This document shows positions 2,026-38,197 of a stretch of DNA of 47,011 bases, in pieces. The DNA is taken from IMG/VR virus record IMGVR_UViG_2534682294_000023; one strand, 5' to 3'. Under the pieces are notes generated by a model. The model searched no databases. It was not told the DNA's origin and saw only the letters and a list, made by a program, of their open reading frames with translations. The translations under genes and the position numbers were made by a program. Each line of letters opens with the position of its first letter. Within the stretch, counting starts at the first letter, position 1. Source of the DNA: a virus. Taxonomy: Duplodnaviria; Heunggongvirae; Uroviricota; Caudoviricetes.

Positions 2026-4083
2026 TTATGCCGCAGGGGTATTAACCTCAAGGACAACGCTCTCAAAAGACACGCCATAAGTTGCCCCTTTGGTGACATC
2101 TGTCAGTGTCAGCGTATCTTTGGCAGGGGAAAGTGCATCTTTCACCATCTGGAATGCCTGGCCCGGAGTGCCATCCAGCACAGGCGTTACCTGGGCACTT
2201 CCCGCCGTAAACTTCAGGACAAGTGTATGCCACTGGTTATTGTAGGCTCCAAATGATCCCAGTTTCGTATTCCCCCCTGTTTTATGGTGCATCAGATTTA
2301 ACTGGCCGCCTGTTGTCTGGAGATAATACGCCATCAGGAACGGTGTGCCTGTACCACTCATGGTTACACCTTCCGGGACCGTATCGGTGTGGAGGTAAAT
2401 ACCCAGAGCAAACTGGCCTTCTTTTACTTCACCTGACAGACGGAATTTACAGGTCAACTGACCACCATGCTTCAGAAGTTCACCGGCTGCATCAGTTCCA
2501 TGGGTAAGCGTCCAGGTTTTTCCGCTTTGTTTGGATACGGTCAACGCTTTACCTTCGTCCGTCAGCTGGATTGTACCATCTGTAATTTTCCAGCCCTGAG
2601 CCGGGGCTTCTCCTGCTGATGCTTTAAGTGAAAGCAGCGTACGGAGTGACGGGGATGTCGGATGGGGGGACTCACTGCCTCCTGGCTGACTACCTGTCGG
2701 CGCTTCCGGTTTCCCACCCGGCGCGGGCTGAGGCAGGGCTTCACCATCAGGGGCCACACCGGCAATAAATGCAGAGGTCAGACCTGCATATTTAAGAATT
2801 GCTGATGCAAAACGATCTGAGACCAGAAAACGGCGCGCCCAGGAGCTAAAATGGGTTGCCCTGGATGCTGTTGTCCAGTTGCCATCTCCCCGTGATTCCG
2901 CACCATAATACCCGGCAGAAGCGATATCCGGGTCGTGCTCCGGCAGGTTGGTCGCGGTTTTATTACCGAACTCATCGTGCATCAGTGGAACAAAGTGAAT
3001 GTTCTCGGAAGCCCGGTTTTTATATCCGCTATAAATGGTTTCATATGCCGCCGGGTTCTTCTCTTTCCAGTCATAGGTTGTGTCACCACATAACCACGGC
3101 ACACTGTCTGATGAACCACCAATACACTGACCGGAGAAAGCACCAAGATCCGCACGGAATTTTTTCACCATCGCAGTAAACTGGGCACCATGCTGGGCCG
3201 GGGTCGCTTTAAGGTCTCCTTCCCCCTGAATCCATACGACAGATAACAGCACATTCTTTGGATTCGCCTCAAGTGCCGCTTTAGTTCGACTGACAAGATC
3301 CTGATACAGTGGGGTATCCACTCCCCAGCGTAGTGACGCCTCGGCTGCACCACTTGCCGGATCGAATGAGCCAACTGCGCCGGTTGTAAAAGCAGAGCCG
3401 CCACGGGCACAGGGAACCAGTAAAATCCCGGCATCAGCAGGAATCACCGGTAATACTTTTTTCGCAATATGAAGTCCCTGCCCCACACAACCATACTGCC
3501 CTTTTTTCAGGTCTGCTTTTGGATGGTTCAGCAGACTCATATTCTGAACATCATGAAGGCAGTGATCTGCTGGAATGATTTCATTGTATTTGCAGGGAAT
3601 ACCTCCGGGGGTTTGTGTATTCCTGCGTGCCAGCTGCATAATACGTGGATCAGGACGATCATAAGAATCCGGAAGGGGCAACCCTTCACCATAAGATGAA
3701 GCATTGGACTGGCCGGCTATAACAATCACGTAATACCAGGAAGGGGAGCTGGAAGCCGTTTCATTTCCTGCCGGACGGGTATGTGTTTCTGCATTATCCC
3801 AGTCTGACGGTTCAGCAGTACCGGCAACATCAGCACTTAACGGAATGACAGCACCAATACCCGCTCCGGTAATTTCCACGTTCGGATCACCGGATACTGG
3901 CCTTACCCACAGGCAATCCTGTGTATTAAAACTGATGAGACAGTCAGCAAATGTCATTCCTCCTTTCGTTTCAGCAGGAGGAAAGGGAGCCTCAAGAAAT
4001 GCCGCTGTACCACCGGAAACTTTAACGGTAAAGTTTCCGGGCATTGATGATAGTTGAACCCATTTGGACGTCATAATATTCAT
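2026..4083 (-). CDS. NanS-like sialate O-acetylesterase: N-terminal region, SGNH/DUF303-type esterase core (GQSN motif), C-terminal lectin/LamG-like domain
   Basis: 685-aa ORF containing IAGQSNASSYGEG, typical of sialate 9-O-acetylesterase (NanS / prophage NanS-p) domains; C-terminal beta-rich region resembles a carbohydrate-binding domain. Confidence 0.55.
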   Translation of the reverse strand: MNIMTSKWVQLSSMPGNFTVKVSGGTAAFLEAPFPPAETKGGMTFADCLISFNTQDCLWVRPVSGDPNVEITGAGIGAVIPLSADVAGTAEPSDWDNAETHTRPAGNETASSSPSWYYVIVIAGQSNASSYGEGLPLPDSYDRPDPRIMQLARRNTQTPGGIPCKYNEIIPADHCLHDVQNMSLLNHPKADLKKGQYGCVGQGLHIAKKVLPVIPADAGILLVPCARGGSAFTTGAVGSFDPASGAAEASLRWGVDTPLYQDLVSRTKAALEANPKNVLLSVVWIQGEGDLKATPAQHGAQFTAMVKKFRADLGAFSGQCIGGSSDSVPWLCGDTTYDWKEKNPAAYETIYSGYKNRASENIHFVPLMHDEFGNKTATNLPEHDPDIASAGYYGAESRGDGNWTTASRATHFSSWARRFLVSDRFASAILKYAGLTSAFIAGVAPDGEALPQPAPGGKPEAPTGSQPGGSESPHPTSPSLRTLLSLKASAGEAPAQGWKITDGTIQLTDEGKALTVSKQSGKTWTLTHGTDAAGELLKHGGQLTCKFRLSGEVKEGQFALGIYLHTDTVPEGVTMSGTGTPFLMAYYLQTTGGQLNLMHHKTGGNTKLGSFGAYNNQWHTLVLKFTAGSAQVTPVLDGTPGQAFQMVKDALSPAKDTLTLTDVTKGATYGVSFESVVLEVNTPAA

Positions 4084-4173: not shown

Positions 4174-4734
4174 TTATTTTTCCGAAACGCTCGCAGGATA
4201 ATAACGATAAAGGGTTGAAAGGCCGATATCAAAAATAAGTGCCACCTGTCTTCGACTGACACCCCCGGCCAGTAAACGCCCGACCTGCTCGTATTGTTCC
4301 TGCGTGAGACGACGGGGTCTGCCGCCGGTTCGTCCCCTTTCACGGGCAGCTGCAAGACCAGCCCGTGTCCGTTCGACAATTAATTCACGCTCCATTTCTG
4401 CCAGCGCACCCATTATGTGAAAAAAGAAGCGCCCCATGGGGGTTGACGTATCAATGTTGTCAGTAAGACTACGAAAATTTATCCCCTGTTGCTGTAATTC
4501 ATCTGTCAGCGCAACAAGGTGGCGCATACTGCGCCCCAGCCTGTCCAGTTTCCAGACCATCAGTGTGTCACCGGGTTTTAGTTTCTTCAGTGCCCGCTTC
4601 AGTCCCGGCCGCTGTGTCGTTTTACCACTCATTTTATCTTCAAAAATCTGCTCACATCCTGCACATTCCAGCGCATTTCTTTGTAAACCTGTGTTCTGGT
4701 CATTTGTTGATACGCGTATATAGCCAATCAGCAT
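4174..4734 (-). CDS. gin: Gin-family serine DNA invertase
   Basis: 186-aa ORF MLIGYIRVSTNDQNTGLQRNALECAGCEQIFEDK...; matches the Gin/Hin/Cin/Pin N-terminal catalytic serine region and C-terminal HTH. Confidence 0.9.
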   Translation of the reverse strand: MLIGYIRVSTNDQNTGLQRNALECAGCEQIFEDKMSGKTTQRPGLKRALKKLKPGDTLMVWKLDRLGRSMRHLVALTDELQQQGINFRSLTDNIDTSTPMGRFFFHIMGALAEMERELIVERTRAGLAAARERGRTGGRPRRLTQEQYEQVGRLLAGGVSRRQVALIFDIGLSTLYRYYPASVSEK

Positions 4735-28046: not shown

Positions 28047-28472
28047 TCAGAAAAGTGGCGGTTGTGTTCTTGCCAGATGCAGACGGCGCTGTTCACGTAT
28101 GACGGTATAAATCTGGGTTTCTGACATCCGGTAATGGCGGCGAAGGGATTCAATTTTCTCGCCCCGGTCCCAGCGCGAAAATATCTCATTGTTTCGCAGC
28201 TCGGCAAAGAGAGATTCCCCGACCGGCAGGTAATAACCCCGTCCGCCCATATAGGCTGCCTGAGCCGCAGCCACCTTGCGTGCCAGTTTGCCGGCCAGTA
28301 CCGGCTCAATCCCCTGACGCTGAAGTTCTGCGCCGGTGACTTCAACCAGTTCTGACAGGGTCCGCGGCCAGTTCTTTTTGAGAACATCATCAGGGATGTC
28401 ATCAAGGCGGTCGATAAGGGCGTGCAGTTGCTCACTGTCACCACCAAACATGCTCATCTGAGTTTCTGCCAT
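28047..28472 (-). CDS. Mor/C-family transcriptional activator of late genes
   Basis: 141-aa ORF with GGAGG RBS; C-terminal HTH region typical of Mor/C; lies immediately upstream of the lysis and morphogenesis genes. Confidence 0.75.
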   Translation of the reverse strand: MAETQMSMFGGDSEQLHALIDRLDDIPDDVLKKNWPRTLSELVEVTGAELQRQGIEPVLAGKLARKVAAAQAAYMGGRGYYLPVGESLFAELRNNEIFSRWDRGEKIESLRRHYRMSETQIYTVIREQRRLHLARTQPPLF

Positions 28473-28541
28473 ATCAGCCTCCGGTTCTCGCGTTCCCGGT
28501 AAGTTTAAAATAAAAATCCCGCGTTGTGGCGGGATTTGGAG

Positions 28542-29051
28542 TTAACGGGGAAGTGATTTTTCATACTGCCTGCAAACGGCGTCATACCCCATCAGCGTGC
28601 GTTCGGGCATTCCCATCGCGGCCAGCATTTTGCGGCGGTGCCATCGCTTGAGACGCTCCAGCACATCTGAGGCCAGGGCGGGGTGTTGCTCCAGCCACTG
28701 CCAGTTTGCCACACCTTCGCCGCCGTTCTGCGCGGCCGTCTGCGATTTCACCCAGCGGTTAAGGGCGGTTTCCGCACCATCGGTGATAAAGCCCTGCCGG
28801 TGCATCACCTTCCAGATGGCGCGAATTTTGGCGGTCACCGTACCCGGTTTTAAGGCCCGGTTAACCGGGTTCTGACGCACTTTAAAACCGCGTTTTTTGA
28901 AAACATCCAGCACGCGGGATAACTCATCCGGTGACATATCCCGGCAGCTGGTTTTGCCGGTGACCGCCAGTAGTACGGATGTGTAGGTTTCATCATCCAG
29001 GGCAAGCTCGCGTTTTGCCACATGAATGGCAGATATCAGTTTCCCTCTCAT
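28542..29051 (-). CDS. GemA-like regulatory protein
   Basis: 169-aa ORF directly upstream of the Mor/C-like gene, as gemA is in Mu. Confidence 0.6.
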   Translation of the reverse strand: MRGKLISAIHVAKRELALDDETYTSVLLAVTGKTSCRDMSPDELSRVLDVFKKRGFKVRQNPVNRALKPGTVTAKIRAIWKVMHRQGFITDGAETALNRWVKSQTAAQNGGEGVANWQWLEQHPALASDVLERLKRWHRRKMLAAMGMPERTLMGYDAVCRQYEKSLPR

Positions 29052-29344
29052 GCTGTATCAACACTCCTGCGGATATGATAGGTATTATTTTCCCGATCGA
29101 GCTGAACCCGATACTCCGGAGGAATCACAAAAATATTAAAACCATCATCAGTTTTTATTCTTGAGTAGCATTCCCCCTTATGATATCTGGCCAGTGCATT
29201 AATCAGAGAAGTCGCAGCCTGCCCAATCAGGTATTTTTTATGAAAAATACTGATAACTTTCCGGCACAGCCATCGTGTAATGACGAATGCACCGAAAAAG
29301 GATGTGATATATAAATACCAGAACAACTGCGAACTACTGTCCAT
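29048..29344 (-). CDS. Hypothetical early-region membrane protein
   Basis: 98-aa ORF with N-terminal transmembrane helix; AT-rich. Confidence 0.4.
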   Translation of the reverse strand: MDSSSQLFWYLYITSFFGAFVITRWLCRKVISIFHKKYLIGQAATSLINALARYHKGECYSRIKTDDGFNIFVIPPEYRVQLDRENNTYHIRRSVDTA

Positions 29345-29531
29345 TATCTTTCTCCTTATTCAGTCTTCTGCGGCATTCGGCACAGTCATCAGGGCTTTCA
29401 AATGTATCCGGCTCGCGATTATGAGCCAGATATAACCACCGTCCACATATACTGATATTTTCGCCTGTTTTAAAAAAATGATGCTTCCTGGCCATTAGTG
29501 GCCGCGCCCATCCAGCGGGTAGACTATTCAT
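29334..29531 (-). CDS. Hypothetical small Cys-containing protein
   Basis: 65-aa ORF, CGRW...CAEC spacing. Confidence 0.3.
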   Translation of the reverse strand: MNSLPAGWARPLMARKHHFFKTGENISICGRWLYLAHNREPDTFESPDDCAECRRRLNKEKDNGQ

Positions 29532-29859
29532 TTGCTTTATCCTCCATGCTGGACAGAATCATATGTATTAATGTCGGGCGTGGAGATATACGCATTTCAT
29601 TAAGCGTCTGAAGGGCAGCAACAGCTGCCTGTTTATCGGTGCCTTTGGCAATTTCAGCAAGAGAATGCACAATCCATAATGGGCTTAACGCTACGGCTGA
29701 ATGCAGAATCATGTCATCCATAATAATTTCTGGCATATCCCGTTTGTCACATTCTTTATCCATAAAAGAAACGATTTTTTCTGCATCTTCCGGTTTCATT
29801 CCTCCGGCGATGAGAATTTTACGATATTCATAAGACGATCTTAATTCAATACTCATCAT
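29524..29859 (-). CDS. Hypothetical early-region protein
   Basis: 111-aa ORF overlapping neighbours by a few nt. Confidence 0.4.
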   Translation of the reverse strand: MMSIELRSSYEYRKILIAGGMKPEDAEKIVSFMDKECDKRDMPEIIMDDMILHSAVALSPLWIVHSLAEIAKGTDKQAAVAALQTLNEMRISPRPTLIHMILSSMEDKANE

Positions 29860-29871
29860 TCACCTGCCTGT

Positions 29872-30264
29872 TTAATCAGTTTCCAGTGCTTTGCTACGGG
29901 CAACAGCCTCACACTCAAAAAATACCGACTCCGGCACACGCTCCTTTAATTCACGAACAAGAAAATCATTAACGAGTTCATGACGTCTTATATTTCTTTC
30001 CTTTTCCTCCTGGCGCAATACAGCAAGGCGGTATTCAACAGTCCGGCGTTGTTTCTGAAAGACAGCCAGTGCTTTTCTGGCAGAGTTACGCCATGTATCA
30101 TCGCCACAGGGTTCGTATTCAAGCTGAAATTTAATCTCTTCAATGGTTTCTTTTATTTTTGCCAGCAAGCTAAGACAGTCGCTGATTGTCTTCAGTTTTT
30201 CATTATCAATATAACTTCTCACGCATTCACCTCCCGTCATTCCGGTAAAGCTGAAATATGGCAC
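29872..30264 (-). CDS. Hypothetical early-region protein (coiled-coil)
   Basis: 130-aa ORF. Confidence 0.4.
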   Translation of the reverse strand: MPYFSFTGMTGGECVRSYIDNEKLKTISDCLSLLAKIKETIEEIKFQLEYEPCGDDTWRNSARKALAVFQKQRRTVEYRLAVLRQEEKERNIRRHELVNDFLVRELKERVPESVFFECEAVARSKALETD

Positions 30265-30548
30265 CAGTGCGTCACCTGTCCGTCCTCATCTTCAAGGCAG
30301 GCTCCGGTTTCTTCATCAATAAAAAAGCCTTCATACCCCATATGGCCGATGCGCAGTTCCTGTTGGTCACCATACTGAACAATCAGCACGACAGCCTCCA
30401 TATCAGGCGGGAAAGCATCATTCAGTGAATGCCAGGGATAACCGCGCAAATCCCCGAAATAAACACCGGTCAGCGTTCCGCCACAGACCGGCATTCCGAC
30501 GGCACACACAAGGGGTTCATCTGATTCAACAAATAATGTCGTTATCAT
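30237..30548 (-). CDS. Hypothetical early-region protein
   Basis: 103-aa acidic ORF. Confidence 0.4.
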   Translation of the reverse strand: MITTLFVESDEPLVCAVGMPVCGGTLTGVYFGDLRGYPWHSLNDAFPPDMEAVVLIVQYGDQQELRIGHMGYEGFFIDEETGACLEDEDGQVTHWCHISALPE

Positions 30549-31096
30549 GGCATTAATTCCCGTAATACAACATCTTCGGCAGTCCGACGACGGTGATAAA
30601 TAAAACTCACCGTGCCCTCGGATAATTCAAATTTCTCGCCGATTTCCCTAAAGGTAAGACGCCGTGGTGATTCAGCATCCCGTAATTCACGAATAAGACG
30701 AACATCATCGTCAGGTATGCGGGTGAAGGGCAGCAACTCTCCGTATTTTTTCATGCTTACGCCAATATATCGCGCCCGATTGTGGACAGAATCCCGGTCT
30801 CGCCCCAGATATTCTCCTATTTGCTTACCGGTCATTGTTCTGGCATTTTTTCGGATAAATTTATCTTCATCAGGTTTAAATCTGAGGCGTTTGCATTTGA
30901 GCAACTCCGGGTAAGTACCGCGTAATAAAACAATCCGGTTATGTACACCCCAGAAACTTCTTTTTATCCTGACAGCAATATCCTTAACCGGGGTGGATGG
31001 ATAAAGCGCAATCAGCAGCGCATCTTCTTCAGGTGTCCATGCGCGAACATGAGCGGGTGCACGGCCTTTTCTCCCCATGGGTTGTAATATCATCAT
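30545..31096 (-). CDS. Hypothetical early-region protein with three tandem HTH-like repeats
   Basis: 183-aa ORF; three segments of similar pattern (WTPEEDALLIAL...IAVRI, MTGKQIGEYLGRDRDSVHNRARYIG, LTFREIGEKFELSEGTVSFIYHRR). Confidence 0.45.
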   Translation of the reverse strand: MMILQPMGRKGRAPAHVRAWTPEEDALLIALYPSTPVKDIAVRIKRSFWGVHNRIVLLRGTYPELLKCKRLRFKPDEDKFIRKNARTMTGKQIGEYLGRDRDSVHNRARYIGVSMKKYGELLPFTRIPDDDVRLIRELRDAESPRRLTFREIGEKFELSEGTVSFIYHRRRTAEDVVLRELMP

Positions 31097-31099
31097 GCA

Positions 31100-31615
31100 T
31101 CACCCCCTGACTCGCTTTTCAGCAGCATAAAACTCATCAGACAGAATTTCGGTCATTTTCTGATTTGCGGGTTTTACGCCGCACTCAAGGTAAATCACAT
31201 CGTCAACGCAGAACCACTTCACAGGGCCAAACATGATTGCCGAGAAATCAATACCCAGCCAGAACAACAGTGCATCGGTTCTGGCATACGTGACGGGCGA
31301 ATATTCACGCCACAGACTGTTAAGTTCGTCAGAGGCAACGCGCAGGGCTTTGGGAATACGTGATGTGCGCGGTGTGCAGCTCCAGCCATTCGACGCAGTC
31401 GGTTTTCGCCATAAGTCGCGATGAAAAGGATATTTGTCATCCATAAAGCGCAGCCCTTTAAAACAAAAGCCACTGATACCGGATACAAATACCGACCGGC
31501 ACGCAACATTCAGCACGGCCTCAAGGCGTTTTGCCTCATCCTTAACTTTCTGGCAGTCCTGCTGATATTTTTGCCACGCGGCCAGCGCGGAAGGGTTTGA
31601 TGTTTTAAAGAACAT
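31100..31615 (-). CDS. Hypothetical early-region protein
   Basis: 171-aa ORF. Confidence 0.45.
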   Translation of the reverse strand: MFFKTSNPSALAAWQKYQQDCQKVKDEAKRLEAVLNVACRSVFVSGISGFCFKGLRFMDDKYPFHRDLWRKPTASNGWSCTPRTSRIPKALRVASDELNSLWREYSPVTYARTDALLFWLGIDFSAIMFGPVKWFCVDDVIYLECGVKPANQKMTEILSDEFYAAEKRVRG

Positions 31616-32148
31616 TACGCCACCTCCGCAGATATCCCGGCAGGCGCGGCCGTCCGGTCAACAATCAGGTAACGCAGAACGCGCGAGGTGATATTCCAGC
31701 CGCTTAAACCGCAGATAATGACACCCAGGCGTATGTCGATATACGCCATCACAAACTGGGGCACGCCTTCTTTCATGGCCTGCTCATCAACTTCAGCCAC
31801 CACATAAACGGTTTCACAGGTCAGAACGCCCTGAGCAAATTCCCACGCCATTGACGGAATATCATGCCCCTCAATCCACGGCAGGGATTTTCTGAAGCTG
31901 CACCACTGAACATCATCAGCCGCACCTTCCTGGCTGCATTTGCGACGAACCGGCTGCACCGGGCGGGGACGCGGAATATCATAAAAACCGTTACATTCCG
32001 TCAGCACCCCGGCATCGACCGCATCACGCAGAAAATAAACCATCGAGGATGGCGGCATATTCATTTTTTCAGCCAGAATGCCGCAGGTCAGACGCCCGTA
32101 AATACTCAGCCAGTTTTTAACCCCTTCAAGCACTTTTGCACCAATCAT
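31615..32148 (-). CDS. Hypothetical early-region protein
   Basis: 177-aa ORF. Confidence 0.45.
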   Translation of the reverse strand: MIGAKVLEGVKNWLSIYGRLTCGILAEKMNMPPSSMVYFLRDAVDAGVLTECNGFYDIPRPRPVQPVRRKCSQEGAADDVQWCSFRKSLPWIEGHDIPSMAWEFAQGVLTCETVYVVAEVDEQAMKEGVPQFVMAYIDIRLGVIICGLSGWNITSRVLRYLIVDRTAAPAGISAEVA

Positions 32149-32151
32149 GAA

Positions 32152-32694
32152 TTATTCCTCCGTCAGCGCCACATATTCAGAATGTTTAATCTCCTGGCAT
32201 TCTTCAGGAATACCCCCTTTTATTTCCCTGCCATAAGCGCCTACTTTAAACACCACGCACAGGGCATCACGGGAGAGCGACGGGGTCCACCAGGAGTCCA
32301 TGTTAAACATGGAGGGGATTCTCATTACCCCCAGCTTTTCACAGAGCCAGACAAGGAAATCAGGACGCTTTCTTAACTCGCGTTCAGCGGCTTCAATCAT
32401 TGCGGCAATCGCCGGTCCTTCAGGGCATGACTCATCAGGTCTGGCAATAAAGCACGGTCCGTCCCCGATAAAAGCCACATCATCGCGCTTACGCCAGCCC
32501 GCAGGCAGAGCACCAGAAAAATAAAACTCACTGATTACGTCCATGGCAAACGGCTTTAAGCGCAATCCGGCAGCGCCTGTATTTTTCAGTAATGCCCGAA
32601 GAATACTGTTGCGTAGCGGTAAAACAGTCTGTTGATATTTGGTGAAATATTTATTTGTCTGCACACGGTCTAATTTGAAATAAAAATATGCCAT
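32152..32694 (-). CDS. Hypothetical early-region protein
   Basis: 180-aa ORF. Confidence 0.45.
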   Translation of the reverse strand: MAYFYFKLDRVQTNKYFTKYQQTVLPLRNSILRALLKNTGAAGLRLKPFAMDVISEFYFSGALPAGWRKRDDVAFIGDGPCFIARPDESCPEGPAIAAMIEAAERELRKRPDFLVWLCEKLGVMRIPSMFNMDSWWTPSLSRDALCVVFKVGAYGREIKGGIPEECQEIKHSEYVALTEE

Positions 32695-32791
32695 ATATCC
32701 TGTTCCTTATTTTCAGTTTACAGGCGCAGGCAGTCCCCTGACGCGAGCGCCATAATTAAAACGAAGTGATATTTAATTGATTAATGCGGTG

Positions 32792-33322
32792 TTATTTATT
32801 CAGTCCGGCGTCCTGTTCAAAAGGCTCGACATAAAAACTTTCAGCGCCTTTATTCACCTTAATACCGGCAATCCCTTTCACCGCATCCGGCTCCGCCAGG
32901 ACCGCTTCCTTGTTCACTTCCTCTTTCGTGCGGATGAATCGCTCAAGCCCCATACGGCGCAGCATTTCAATCACACCTTCCACATCACGACTGACGCTGC
33001 ATGATGGATTCCCCAGTCGCCATGACACCGTTCCGGTGGTCAGATTGGCAGTTTTGGTTTTGCCGCCGTTCGTCAGCTCATCACGGTTGGTTTTGCACCA
33101 GTCCTGAATCCCCTTAAAAAGCACTTTGATTTCTTTTTTAAGGTTTTCAATCTGCGGCGTATAACGGGCGGTGATTTCTGCCACTTCATCATTCATCGCT
33201 GTTTCCAGGCGCAGCGCCTCTCGCTGAATATCGCCCAGGGTGCGGATATCGCGGCTGACCTCTTCACGGGTCTGCGGTGCCGCCTCTGCTGCGGCCTTTA
33301 ATTTTGTAACGCGTTTTGCCAT
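32792..33322 (-). CDS. gam: Host-nuclease inhibitor Gam (Ku-like DNA end-binding protein)
   Basis: 176-aa ORF; size, composition and position match Mu Gam. Confidence 0.75.
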   Translation of the reverse strand: MAKRVTKLKAAAEAAPQTREEVSRDIRTLGDIQREALRLETAMNDEVAEITARYTPQIENLKKEIKVLFKGIQDWCKTNRDELTNGGKTKTANLTTGTVSWRLGNPSCSVSRDVEGVIEMLRRMGLERFIRTKEEVNKEAVLAEPDAVKGIAGIKVNKGAESFYVEPFEQDAGLNK

Positions 33323-34183: not shown

Positions 34184-34450
34184 TCACACCTCCCAGTAAA
34201 CCGTGCAGCCGCTGATGCGGGTGGCCTTCACACGGCGGCGCAGGCCGTTGGTCTGTATGGTGATTTCAATTTCACCGGTTCCCTGCACGTTGCCTACCGG
34301 CGGCGTGGTTTTCAGTGCAAAACGTTGCGGATAGCGCTTACTGCGTTCCAGTACCGCACCGGCAAGTTCGGTCAGACGGCGCGCGCTGTTCAGGGAGTCG
34401 AATAAATTCATTTTGTTACCGCAGGATTGCATATTCATATAACACCTCAT
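34184..34450 (-). CDS. Hypothetical early protein
   Basis: 88-aa ORF. Confidence 0.4.
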   Translation of the reverse strand: MRCYMNMQSCGNKMNLFDSLNSARRLTELAGAVLERSKRYPQRFALKTTPPVGNVQGTGEIEITIQTNGLRRRVKATRISGCTVYWEV

Positions 34451-34678
34451 TTAGCTGACTTGTTTCGCACCAACAGAACGGCATATTCCGCTGTAAACGT
34501 CTGTCGCACCTTCTCGATCAAGTCCGGCAGATATCACCATTCGTGTGCGGTCATTAAATTCAAAAAGTAAATCGCCACATTCTTTATTTTCGGCCAGTGA
34601 AATCACCTTCACGTTATCGAAATTAACCAGGTAAAAGCGTCCGTAAATATCAGGAATATTAAATACCGCCATAATCAC
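34451..34678 (-). CDS. Possible Kil-like protein
   Basis: 75-aa ORF immediately downstream of B with start/stop overlap, as kil is in Mu; no sequence-level confirmation. Confidence 0.3.
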   Translation of the reverse strand: MIMAVFNIPDIYGRFYLVNFDNVKVISLAENKECGDLLFEFNDRTRMVISAGLDREGATDVYSGICRSVGAKQVS

Positions 34679-35607
34679 ACCTGTGAGAGTAATTCAGGGT
34701 TGGTATAAACCTCTTTAAAGGCCGCATTAATATGTTTTTCTGTCAGCGCCGCGCCTTCACCGCTGGCGGTGAGCCACGCCTGGTTAAGCGTATGTGTCAG
34801 AACGCGTAACGCTCCCGGCTTTTCAGCGATAGCCTGCATGACGGCCAGCTCGGCCTCACCACTGATCCCCCACGCCCTGGCAATGGCCAGCACATCCGCC
34901 TTTTTGGCCTTGCGAAGTTGTTTTGTACGGGCAAGACGGCTGAACAGGCGCGATAAATCATCAAAGGTGCGGCGTCCACCTTTAAACAATCCGCGCGGGT
35001 TACCAATAAGCACCATCCCGATCCCCGTGGCGTCCTGAATTGCCCGGAGTTGCTCCAGACCGTCAATACCAAGATGATCCGCCTCATCCACAATCACCAG
35101 TCCACGCGTTCCCATCAGGCGACGGCGGATGGCGCGGGATAATGCCCCTTTGTTCGCGCGGGTGTAATCAATCCCCAGCGCATCGGCCAGCTCCAGCAGA
35201 CACTCCGTGACGCTGGAGTGCGCGGGTGACAGGGTGATCATCCAGGTGTTTGGTTGCTCCTGGCAGTAATTACGGGCAGTGGCCGTTTTACCCACACCCG
35301 GTACGCCCACAATAACGTTAATACAGCCCATCAGACGAACCGCCTGAAACAGTGCGCGCAGCTCCTGGACTGTCTGCGTTTCCACAAACTGCGGCGGTTC
35401 CGGCAGTGCGCTTTGTTTATTCCAGTTCTCATACCAGGAACGCAGGGAAGCAGCCACAGCAGCGTTATCGCCTTTATATTTTCCCTTACGGAAAGCCGAT
35501 AATGTGCCGTCGGAAATTCCCGCCTCTCTGGCGATGGCATACTGCGTCAGTACGCCGCCATCAATAAGTTCATCAATGGTCTTGATTACATCGTTAATAT
35601 CAGTCAT
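34675..35607 (-). CDS. B: Transposition ATPase B (MuB-like)
   Basis: 310-aa ORF with Walker A GVPGVGKT and N-terminal HTH; immediately downstream of the transposase. Confidence 0.9.
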   Translation of the reverse strand: MTDINDVIKTIDELIDGGVLTQYAIAREAGISDGTLSAFRKGKYKGDNAAVAASLRSWYENWNKQSALPEPPQFVETQTVQELRALFQAVRLMGCINVIVGVPGVGKTATARNYCQEQPNTWMITLSPAHSSVTECLLELADALGIDYTRANKGALSRAIRRRLMGTRGLVIVDEADHLGIDGLEQLRAIQDATGIGMVLIGNPRGLFKGGRRTFDDLSRLFSRLARTKQLRKAKKADVLAIARAWGISGEAELAVMQAIAEKPGALRVLTHTLNQAWLTASGEGAALTEKHINAAFKEVYTNPELLSQV

Positions 35608-35678: not shown

Positions 35679-37769
35679 TCAGGCCAGCGGGTCATTTTCT
35701 TTTAATTTCGCTTCCAGCAACTGCAATCCCCGCTGGAAATTACGCTCGTATTCTTCATCAGGTTCATCATCAACGGCAGGTTGCTGAACGGCCACCGTAT
35801 TACCCACCGGGCGGTAGATGTTTTCCAGCCAGGGCTCCTGCGGCTTGTGCTCCAGCACGTTGACAACCTCATCCTCGGCATCACGGATTTTTTCCTCTGC
35901 GCGTTTACGCATACCTTTAAGGCGCTGCTGCTGTTTGTAGTATTCCGCGCTGACCGGGAAGGCTTCGCGTTTATTGCCGTCCCATACCGCCTCGCAAATC
36001 ACGCTGCCATCCAGGCGACGCACGGTAATTCGTTCGGCATCATGAATGTCATAGCTGATAAGCACCTTACGACCATGCTCGTCACGCAGCTCGGGCGCGT
36101 AGTAAATATTATTCAGCCAGCGTATTTCACAGCGTCTTACAGGGCGTTCCACCATCGGCCGGAACATATCCCGCAGCTCAACATCGGACAGCCATTCAAT
36201 TTCCGTGTCCTCTTCCGCCAGGCGTTTTTTTCTGAACTCCGCCGGGCTGTAATGTTTACCGTTCGGCTTCATCGGTAATTCATCGTGCGGCCGGTTGTTG
36301 TACCACTCAACACCGTCACGAATGGCATCAATCAGTTCAGACCAGGACGGTAAATCACGCATCGCTGACTGCTGCCGGGCGTTCAGCCGTTTGCCCTGTT
36401 GCAGGGCAGTAAATGCCGAGCGTAAATCGCGGTTGGTTTTGCGTAACGTCTCGCGATCTGCACCTTTCCCGAAATAGGTGCGGTATTTACGGGCTATGCG
36501 CATCGGTAATGTGCGGTTAAGCCGTTCGATAATGCCTCGTCCCTGCGGATTACCGGCAATCCCGGTCGGGTGATTAATCCCCAGTCGCGGCAGTATCCCC
36601 ACAACCTCCTTATCCAGGATGTCGGCGGTTTCCCCGGAGCCGTTATCCGAGTAATACAGAAACGGTTTGCCGTGATGGCGAATGCCGTGCTGTATGGCAC
36701 CGGCTACGGCGAAAACATTTTCAGCCAGGTCAAGGCTCCAGCCCACCACAAAGCGCGTGCCACCGTCGATAACAAAGGTCACTTCCGGTGCAAATGGCCG
36801 ACCGTGAACCGGGTGTGCGCATTTCAGCTTCATGCCGTGACCGTCACCAATCCAGACATAATTCACCGGCATTCTGGACCAGTCGCGGCGCGTGAATCCC
36901 TCAAGCTGGCGGTATTCACTGCCGGTCACCCGGCCTTTTTGTTTCACCACTTCCGGCAGTTTCTTCATTGCGCGGCGAATGGTGTCATAAGACGGCATGA
37001 TATCGAGCATATAAGGCTCATCAGCGTGCCGGTGCTGCCATTCAGCGACAAAATCCTCGTAAGCCTCGGTCATTGGTCGGCCGTTTGACTGGCGATACTG
37101 CGCCAGAAATTCGGGCAGCCAGTTAATATCTTCGGCTTTTATTTCCTGGCGCTTACCCGGTGCCAGTAAAAGCAGGCGTTCAGCGGCGTTCTGCGCCTTG
37201 TTAAAGGCCGCAATCCAGCGTTTCAGCGTTATTTCACTCAACGCACGGCTGTTTCCCTTTTTGGCGTTCGCCGTCTCAACCATTGCCACAATGCGCTCGT
37301 CCAGTTGCGAACGTGCCAGGTTGTCAACGATAAACCGGATAGCTTTCGCACAGCTGAAACCGGGGTGTTGCGCGACTTTCATCACTTCGCTGACGATCGC
37401 GATTCGTGCATCAGCCACCTGACGCTGGTTTTCAGTCAGGGCATTAAGGCGTTCAACCATCAGTTGTGGTGATCCGCGATATGCCTCCACCGCATCAACC
37501 ACGGCAGGCGAGCGTCTGGCCTTTGTCACCACCGGAGCCGGTGATTCATCAGCTTTTTGCGTCATCAGTTGAAGGGCATAACGTTCACGCAATACTTGTT
37601 GCGCGCCAGAAGGCAAACAATCGATATTAAATTCGATTGCTTTTGTCCCCTTACGTTTGCGTAACATGGCTGCATTTCCCGCAGCTGCTTTTGTGAGTCG
37701 ATGGCGAATGTTATGTTCCATCATTGGTAAATCAGGAAGACCAACACATTCTTTTGCTGTTACCCACAT
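35679..37769 (-). CDS. A: DDE transposase A (MuA-like)
   Basis: 696-aa ORF; size, domain layout and position between ner and B. Confidence 0.9.
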   Translation of the reverse strand: MWVTAKECVGLPDLPMMEHNIRHRLTKAAAGNAAMLRKRKGTKAIEFNIDCLPSGAQQVLRERYALQLMTQKADESPAPVVTKARRSPAVVDAVEAYRGSPQLMVERLNALTENQRQVADARIAIVSEVMKVAQHPGFSCAKAIRFIVDNLARSQLDERIVAMVETANAKKGNSRALSEITLKRWIAAFNKAQNAAERLLLLAPGKRQEIKAEDINWLPEFLAQYRQSNGRPMTEAYEDFVAEWQHRHADEPYMLDIMPSYDTIRRAMKKLPEVVKQKGRVTGSEYRQLEGFTRRDWSRMPVNYVWIGDGHGMKLKCAHPVHGRPFAPEVTFVIDGGTRFVVGWSLDLAENVFAVAGAIQHGIRHHGKPFLYYSDNGSGETADILDKEVVGILPRLGINHPTGIAGNPQGRGIIERLNRTLPMRIARKYRTYFGKGADRETLRKTNRDLRSAFTALQQGKRLNARQQSAMRDLPSWSELIDAIRDGVEWYNNRPHDELPMKPNGKHYSPAEFRKKRLAEEDTEIEWLSDVELRDMFRPMVERPVRRCEIRWLNNIYYAPELRDEHGRKVLISYDIHDAERITVRRLDGSVICEAVWDGNKREAFPVSAEYYKQQQRLKGMRKRAEEKIRDAEDEVVNVLEHKPQEPWLENIYRPVGNTVAVQQPAVDDEPDEEYERNFQRGLQLLEAKLKENDPLA

Positions 37770-38107: not shown

Positions 38108-38197
38108 CGATACTCGAACAATAATCCGAGATCAAGCTTTTTGTTCGGTTTATTGTTTGGTTTTTCTTTTGTGCGTTTTTGTAGGAAAACCATTTTT

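Follow-up and report, generated by a model that had tools for sequence, protein, structure and literature searches.

What do the nine small genes between gam and gemA of a Mu-like prophage do, and is the block they form the counterpart of the semi-essential (SE) early region of phage Mu? The SE region of Mu-like phages has been known for decades, and functions of most of its genes are still lacking. The question is raised by positions 29048-32694 of the viral record IMGVR_UViG_2534682294_000023, a stretch of 47,011 nucleotides (nt) which is called the window below, and in which a preliminary description had placed an early accessory block of nine uncharacterised open reading frames (ORFs), numbered here o1 to o9 from gam to gemA. 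The evidence favours, at a probability of about 0.6, the reading that the block is the SE early region of a Mu-like transposable prophage of Shiga-toxin-producing Escherichia coli (STEC), an early polycistronic accessory module. Within it an invariant core, o2-o3-o4, is accompanied on either side by exchangeable small genes.

The nine ORFs are consecutive and all lie on the minus strand, as had been proposed. The upstream boundary of the block is gam (32792-33322, minus; RefSeq name 'host-nuclease inhibitor Gam family protein'), whose product is 57% identical to Mu Gam over 175 amino acids (aa). The downstream boundary is gemA of the gp16 family (28542-29051, minus; RefSeq 'gp16 family protein'), with a product 44% identical to Mu GemA and a 4-nt overlap with the stop of o9. 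The Mu homologues in the comparison were Gam, GemA, Mor, B, o2 and o3. The homologues of B (AAA ATPase, 34675-35607, minus), gam, gemA and mor (28047-28472, minus) around the block stand in Mu order on the same strand, and orthologues of gp11 and gp12 lie inside it, which bears out its description as a Mu-type early accessory block. The block region is 99.4% identical in DNA over 4.9 kb to Mu-like prophages of E. coli O157:H7 and other Shiga-toxin-producing strains. It is carried by 233 of 5426 complete E. coli genomes, and two Shiga toxin (Stx) phage records annotate it as an "inserted Bacteriophage Mu-like phage".

The same nine coding sequences are annotated by RefSeq in near-identical O157 prophages, where o4 is named "DNA-binding protein" or "AsnC family protein" and the other eight "hypothetical protein". 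Every ORF matches a PHROG family (E 4e-34 to 2e-104). A rival account, in which the ORFs are decaying or non-functional prophage filler, can point to their functions not being known, to the low guanine-cytosine content of o6-o9 (40-46% vs 55-59% in the late genes) and to one related locus with a frameshifted o8 variant. However, the reading frames are intact across hundreds of genomes, and the median ratio of nonsynonymous to synonymous substitution rates (dN/dS), calculated from alleles of related viral contigs, is 0.00-0.34 for o1-o8, well below 1. The median for o9 is 0.55, from very few substitutions, and the estimates for o5 and o7 also rest on few. The PHROG matches of all nine ORFs speak against filler too, as do their tight packing (neighbouring genes are -11 to +14 nt apart, and at several junctions a stop codon overlaps the next start), plausible ribosome-binding sites and the confident AlphaFold2 models of o1 and o4. 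Filler is already unlikely, to the point of being hardly credible.

The architecture of the block was compared across 49 viral-contig loci with an o4 relative, and gene order across 28 complete gam-gemA intervals of related prophages. Every Mu-like locus that spans the positions of o2, o3 and o4 contains these genes, and their dN/dS is 0.18-0.20. The presence of the remaining genes, o1 and o5-o9, varies: the 28 complete intervals fall into 15 gene orders, and at least eight alternative small ORFs are combined with o5-o9 in many ways. No function was found for these alternative genes via Pfam and PHROGs; one small gene gave a weak zinc-ribbon match. Such strong variation in gene set is the pattern expected of accessory, conflict-type genes.

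It had been stated that none of the nine ORFs can be named. This is true of function, since no ORF matches a protein of characterised function, and on that point the preliminary description stands. It is not true of ancestry: o2 is Mu gp11, o3 is Mu gp12, o4 is a homologue of Mu gp9 (E8) and o1 belongs to the DUF5420 lineage. The comparison with Mu E-region genes that had been suggested therefore yields Mu homologues for o2, o3 and o4 and none for o5-o9.

The core gene o2 (31615-32148, minus; 177 aa) is the orthologue of gp11 (Mu_11), with 67% identity and a match to the Pfam family Gp11_C (PF25754) at E 8e-40. Its core neighbour o3 (31100-31615, minus; 171 aa) is the orthologue of gp12 (Mu_12), with 55% identity, and its relatives carry the precomputed Pfam label PF26885 (Phage_Mu_Gp12). 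An exhaustive search of 1.84 billion proteins returned 91 representative clusters of the o3 family, nearly all full-length and of 165-190 aa. Genes of the gp12 family also occur without gp11 in lambdoid prophages, downstream of a CI-type repressor and, where an integrase was seen, between the repressor and the integrase, as well as in another integrase element. In lambdoid prophage L099 (5001-8266), for example, the gp12-family gene lies between the CI-type repressor and the integrase, with a C5 DNA methylase in the same gene run. Because of its presence in this prophage, gp12-type genes are not confined to transposable phages. A fixed partner for gp12-family genes was also sought and none was found, with no gp11 alongside them in non-Mu prophages.

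On the other side of gp11 lies the variable gene o1 (32152-32694, minus; 180 aa), which encodes a divergent protein of the DUF5420 lineage. While o1 itself has no match to the Pfam DUF5420 model (PF17457) at E up to 1, its relatives at 21-38% identity match it: the model is hit by 7 of the 10 that were aligned (best E 1.3e-13), and searching with an o1-family profile brings up PF17457 proteins at E about 1e-70. The profile search returned 132 proteins, all from Salmonella or E. coli, and the DUF5420 proteins which group with o1 come from prophages of these hosts. At the same site of related loci o1 is present, replaced by forms of 21-38% identity, or absent. The family profiles of o1 and gp12 could be aligned end to end with hhalign (162 columns, E 7e-5, probability 63%), and the two families share N-terminal [YF][YF]K and C-terminal E-I-x-x-S-E-[FY]-x-A motifs. 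To judge from these profiles and motifs, o1 and o3 are probably distant paralogues that flank gp11. A direct BLAST comparison of o1 with o3 was not significant (E about 7), and shallow profiles gave P 0.019; the E value of 7e-5 was reached with deeper profiles only. The confident model of o1 has no close match among solved structures, and among predicted viral structures it matches uncharacterised phage proteins only, at template modelling (TM) scores of 0.67-0.70. The family profiles of o1, o2 and o3 had no meaningful sequence match in the PDB, and no mention of DUF5420 was found in a literature search.

The third core gene, o4 (30545-31096, minus; 183 aa), encodes a protein with three tandem Myb/SANT-type helix-turn-helix (HTH) repeats of three helices each. 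Three HTH-like repeats had been noticed in its sequence beforehand, and the AlphaFold2 model, built on 23 relatives with a predicted local distance difference test (pLDDT) score of 84.4, shows three successive three-helix units plus one short terminal helix. The units span residues 22-59 (helices 22-31, 37-44 and 48-59), 75-110 (75-84, 90-97 and 101-110) and 129-169 (129-140, 149-156 and 160-169), so that the repeats are bundles of ~52 residues at a spacing of about 53. The protein is strongly basic, with an isoelectric point (pI) of 10.2 and a net charge of +13. The o4 family profile matches c-Myb R2R3 at E 4.6e-6 across two consecutive repeats and their linker, and also B-Myb (2e-4) and Sulfolobus Cbp1 (6e-4). 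Several o4 relatives carry the precomputed label PF00249. Structural matches of the model are GcrA, Myb and SANT domains, the best being the DNA-binding domain of GcrA.

Repeats 2 and 3 of o4 are homologous to Mu gp9 (formerly E8), a 95-aa protein of two repeats whose gene lies just before gam in Mu. The hhalign alignment covers 89 columns at 36% identity (probability 97.8%, E 7e-13). Both proteins match phrog_323, o4 at E 6e-58 and E8 at 1e-28. Given this homology and the shared family, o4 can be regarded as a relocated Mu E8-type protein with one repeat added. The modelled fold of o4, its charge and its homology give good inferential support to DNA binding in the way known from tandem Myb repeats. 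Literature on the Mu early region and on phage Myb-like proteins was searched, and nothing was found on these genes.

Such a core could serve the phage itself. In this alternative the gp11-like, gp12-like and Myb-type proteins would be accessory factors for transposition or replication, or for the timing of transcription, acting at the Mu ends, at early or middle promoters or on host nucleoid proteins, and not in conflict with the host. The conservation of the core with Mu, its purifying selection and the basic, multi-HTH nature of o4 fit this account. So does the setting of o4 relatives in P2-like phages, where in six of six loci the gene is part of the replication operon, with a Dam-type methylase on one side and replication gene A on the other. 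The o4 family as a whole is confined to E. coli, Salmonella and Citrobacter. The best structural match of o4, GcrA, is described as a regulator which reads adenine methylation (PMC3667746, PMC5887438). As to what o4 does, its likeness to GcrA and the Dam-type neighbour of its P2-like relatives are no more than leads. On the opposite side, gp12-family genes occur by themselves in unrelated prophages that do not transpose, the block of Mu counts as semi-essential (a view echoed in PMC8705779), and a search of the window for a Dam-type (D12-class) methylase that might pair with o4 found none. The account is possible but, on balance, it is not the expected one.

In the P2-like contigs (L045-L050) the o4 relatives are 42-47% identical to o4 and belong to an early replication operon with the order methylase, o4 relative, gene A. 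The stretch before gene A also holds a PAPS-reductase-domain protein in L047 and an Ash-family protein in L045.

Among the variable genes downstream of the core, o8 (29334-29531, minus; 65 aa; phrog_2358, E 4e-34) has the clearest conserved site. The Cys pair which had been pointed out in this ORF, C50-x2-C53, is invariant in 10 relatives at 61-69% identity, and so are H17, H18 and C29. The conserved pattern reads GW-RP, KHH[FY]F, S-I-C-G-x-W (with I changed to T in three relatives) and REPDTFESPDDC-x-x-CRR. As the CxxC, the third Cys and the His-His pair are all invariant, a zinc site is likely, and o8 is probably a small zinc-binding protein. It fits no described zinc-ribbon family, the sole Pfam match being DUF6011 at E 0.14, and its family profile has no PDB sequence match better than E 0.14. 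The family is spread across unrelated phages, with 185 phage records, of which 153 are Pseudomonas phages of about 66 kb and 4 carry the name Pbunalikevirus, and in a second Mu-like lineage an o8 relative lies directly before gemA. The frameshifted o8 of one related prophage (L036 7523-7693 and L064 4001-4171) has lost the C-terminal Cys pair, a case of variable-gene decay.

The gene o5 (30237-30548, minus; 103 aa; phrog_6925, E 2e-52) encodes a very acidic protein (pI 4.05, net charge -16). It was found in two phage records only, both with an inserted Mu-like phage, and is restricted to this prophage family. Its C-terminal "VTHW...LPE" gives a visual impression of a DUF551 domain, an assignment that was dropped for want of a Pfam match at E up to 1. 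Together with o8, it is a candidate small effector. The gene o6 (29872-30264, minus; phrog_6158, E 2e-57 over residues 15-130) would encode 130 aa from a GTG start; this long form is doubtful, as both RefSeq and the PHROG match point to a product of 116 aa with its start at 30222. Its dN/dS is 0.13. Relatives of o7 (29524-29859, minus; 111 aa; phrog_1988, E 6e-45) at 34% identity were found in SfMu and Yersinia Mu-like phages in a TBLASTN search of phage records. The last gene, o9 (29048-29344, minus; 98 aa; phrog_17269, E 1e-68), has a second allele type at about 51% identity. Its aromatic and hydrophobic N-terminal segment was considered as a possible membrane helix and not accepted as one, with a 19-residue Kyte-Doolittle maximum of 1.34 against the usual 1.6. 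Neither o6 nor o9 had an informative match, and none of o6, o7 and o9 shows a recognisable feature.

The turnover of these genes bears on a second alternative, in which the block is an anti-defence island and several of the nine proteins inhibit host immunity (restriction, RecBCD-linked or Gabija systems) early in infection. The genes would be part of an early operon beside gam, and Gam is a known RecBCD antagonist. Lambda keeps early accessory genes downstream of its repressor, toward the integrase, and the gp12-family genes of lambdoid prophages are likewise downstream of a CI-type repressor. The strong turnover of the flanking genes and the divergent o1 alleles at one site also favour defence-related roles, and o5 is acidic in the way of DNA-mimic inhibitors, although acidity by itself is weak evidence. 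In a Mu-like Pseudomonas phage, Gam and GemA interact with the Gabija defence and affect its targeting (PMC12407980). Nevertheless, in searches of Pfam, PHROGs, NCBIfam and PADLOC, the last of which covers defence and not anti-defence proteins, none of the nine ORFs has similarity to any named inhibitor or defence component, and the core is invariant and not diversifying. For the block as a whole the anti-defence account is tentative, with the odds against it. For the variable genes taken by themselves an anti-defence or host-takeover role is plausible, judging from position and variability.

A bolder proposal can also be made. The gp12/DUF5420 superfamily (o3 and o1) would consist of early effectors directed against a host target, with o1 as the arms-race partner of a variable defence, and independently o4 and Mu E8 would be methylation-aware readers of the Myb type. 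In this proposal gp12/DUF5420 would be a phage-specific fold without a solved relative, and o1 would be its extra copy, with alleles of 21-38% identity at one site and frequent loss. It is speculative, and should be regarded as rather improbable.

In the SE-region reading, the nine genes would form a single polycistronic unit which is read from the early promoter and follows gam and the transposase genes A and B. They would be expressed only upon induction or infection, and not in the lysogen. The protein o4 would bind DNA through its successive HTH recognition helices, and from its fold, charge and homology it may be an early regulator or an architectural factor on phage or host DNA. The variable genes, going by position, early expression and turnover only, would be dispensable modulators of host physiology or defences. 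Transcription would end or be attenuated at a hairpin just after gemA.

This hairpin is the strongest terminator-like one of the scan, which also gave four weaker minus-strand hits inside the block. It lies at 28514-28537 (minus), 42 nt before mor, and resembles an intrinsic terminator with a 9-bp stem and a U-run (AAATCCCGC-CACAAC-GCGGGATTT, followed by TTATTTT). The 69-nt gemA-mor spacer (28473-28541) that contains it has a predicted fold of -20.8 kcal/mol. Probably the early transcript ends or is attenuated at this hairpin. It separates gemA from mor, two genes that overlap in Mu, where the annotated terminator comes right after the mor stop. Because the hairpin precedes mor here, mor may need read-through or a promoter of its own. 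Promoter-like sites in the region (5) were not above the expectation from shuffled sequence (7.4 +/- 3.1). At the other end of the block, the 97-nt gam-o1 spacer (32695-32791, minus) contains a GGCGC...GCGCC hairpin without a U-run and is conserved in Mu as the 98-nt spacer between gam and gp11 (ttttaattatggcgc...cgtcagg...gcgcctg). The hairpin is present in both spacers, with predicted folds of -18.6 and -17.8 kcal/mol. No Rfam match was found in the 27-36 kb region at E up to 1.

Several points weigh against the SE-region reading and its mechanism. None of the ORFs has a homologue of demonstrated function: NCBIfam gave nothing significant for any of the nine, Pfam nothing functional, and PADLOC, which covers defence and not anti-defence proteins, nothing below E 0.009 for any of them. 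The relationship between o1 and o3 has an hhalign probability of just 63%. In o4, sequence similarity from repeat to repeat is weak (z = 2.3-4.1) and the Pfam matches (Myb, sigma-70 region 4 and AsnC-type HTH) are all below their gathering thresholds, with a Myb score of 16.9 bits against a gathering score of 24.4. SANT-type domains are also able to bind proteins instead of DNA. Finally, transcription as one unit is inferred from gene spacing, and the extent of the transcript is uncertain because the terminator after gemA differs from the arrangement in Mu.

The surroundings of the block are those of a Mu early region. A Mu-type transposase (35679-37769, minus) lies upstream of B, and lysis and late genes lie beyond mor. 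Between B and gam there are five small ORFs, all on the minus strand. One of these, an 88-aa ORF two genes downstream of B (34184-34450, minus), weakly resembles Kil of Mu, at E 8.5e-5 with phmmer in a database of 13 sequences and at E 4e-4 with TBLASTN, and the other four have no Mu match. An ORF at the repressor position (38141-38839, plus) has Pfam matches to Cro/C1-type HTH_3 and Phage_CI_repr. The repressor end of the prophage abuts host DNA at ~39196 (see also 39165-40130), inside dinF, an SOS-regulon gene which encodes a MATE transporter and lies downstream of lexA. From 39196 onward the flanking DNA matches, at 100% identity, O157:H7 genomes with an intact dinF. Since those genomes keep the gene intact, this prophage copy is a Mu-type insertion that disrupts dinF. 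Near the late end there is a Gin-type serine invertase, and beyond it a 685-aa protein with a sialate O-acetylesterase (SASA) domain and DUF6645, which appears to be cargo (features at 2026-4083 and 4174-4734, both minus).

As matters stand, the block is the STEC-prophage version of the Mu SE region, and nothing in this would surprise a Mu specialist. It becomes more tractable once it is split into a conserved three-gene core and fast-turnover flanking genes. The new points are modest: the three-repeat Myb-type nature of o4 and its homology to E8, the probable link between gp12 and DUF5420, a gp12/DUF5420 fold without a close solved structure, the core/variable split, and the conserved His/Cys site of o8. 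If gp12/DUF5420 proteins did prove to be effectors, or o4 and E8 methylation readers, this would give a first function to a conserved Mu gene that has been unknown for decades. The prophage family is common in STEC, as the genome counts above indicate, and an activity directed at the host would therefore matter for prophage biology in these pathogens.

Comparison with known systems places the block and its proteins more exactly. Like c-Myb R1R2R3 (PDB 1h88/1h89, 1gv2), o4 has three consecutive three-helix domains, and its first repeat opens with W-T-P-E-E-D-x-L-L. Unlike c-Myb, it is a 183-aa phage protein without any other domain. It retains the regularly spaced Trp triad in part, with an invariant W20 and with F or W as the first aromatic residue of repeat 2, and repeat 3 looks closer to sigma-70 region 4 and LuxR-type HTH (Pfam E 4.5e-5, below threshold). 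GcrA of Caulobacter (PDB 5yiu) is 17% identical to o4 and has one such repeat to the three of o4. The phage protein has no sigma-70-binding C-terminal domain, which places it outside the GcrA family, and no Pfam GcrA match at E up to 1. The CRISPR-repeat-binding protein Cbp1 of Sulfolobus (PDB 2lvs) is archaeal, and its likeness to o4 is weak and points to no common target or role. With respect to the two families DUF5420 (PF17457) and Phage_Mu_Gp12 (PF26885), o1 groups with the former and o3 is orthologous to gp12.

The closest known system is the SE/E region of Mu itself (Mu_9 to Mu_54 between B and gemA, AF083977). In a review of transposable phages the SE region is portrayed as long and poorly conserved, with small proteins of uncharacterised function (PMC8705779). 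The block has the same position and orientation as its Mu counterpart between gam and gemA/mor, and both hold genes of unknown function. They differ in gene number, nine here and five in Mu (Mu_11, 12, 13, 14 and 54), and o5-o9 are without a Mu counterpart. The E8-type gene is downstream of gp12 here but upstream of gam in Mu, with three repeats instead of two, and an extra gene of the gp12/DUF5420 type, o1, precedes gp11 here.

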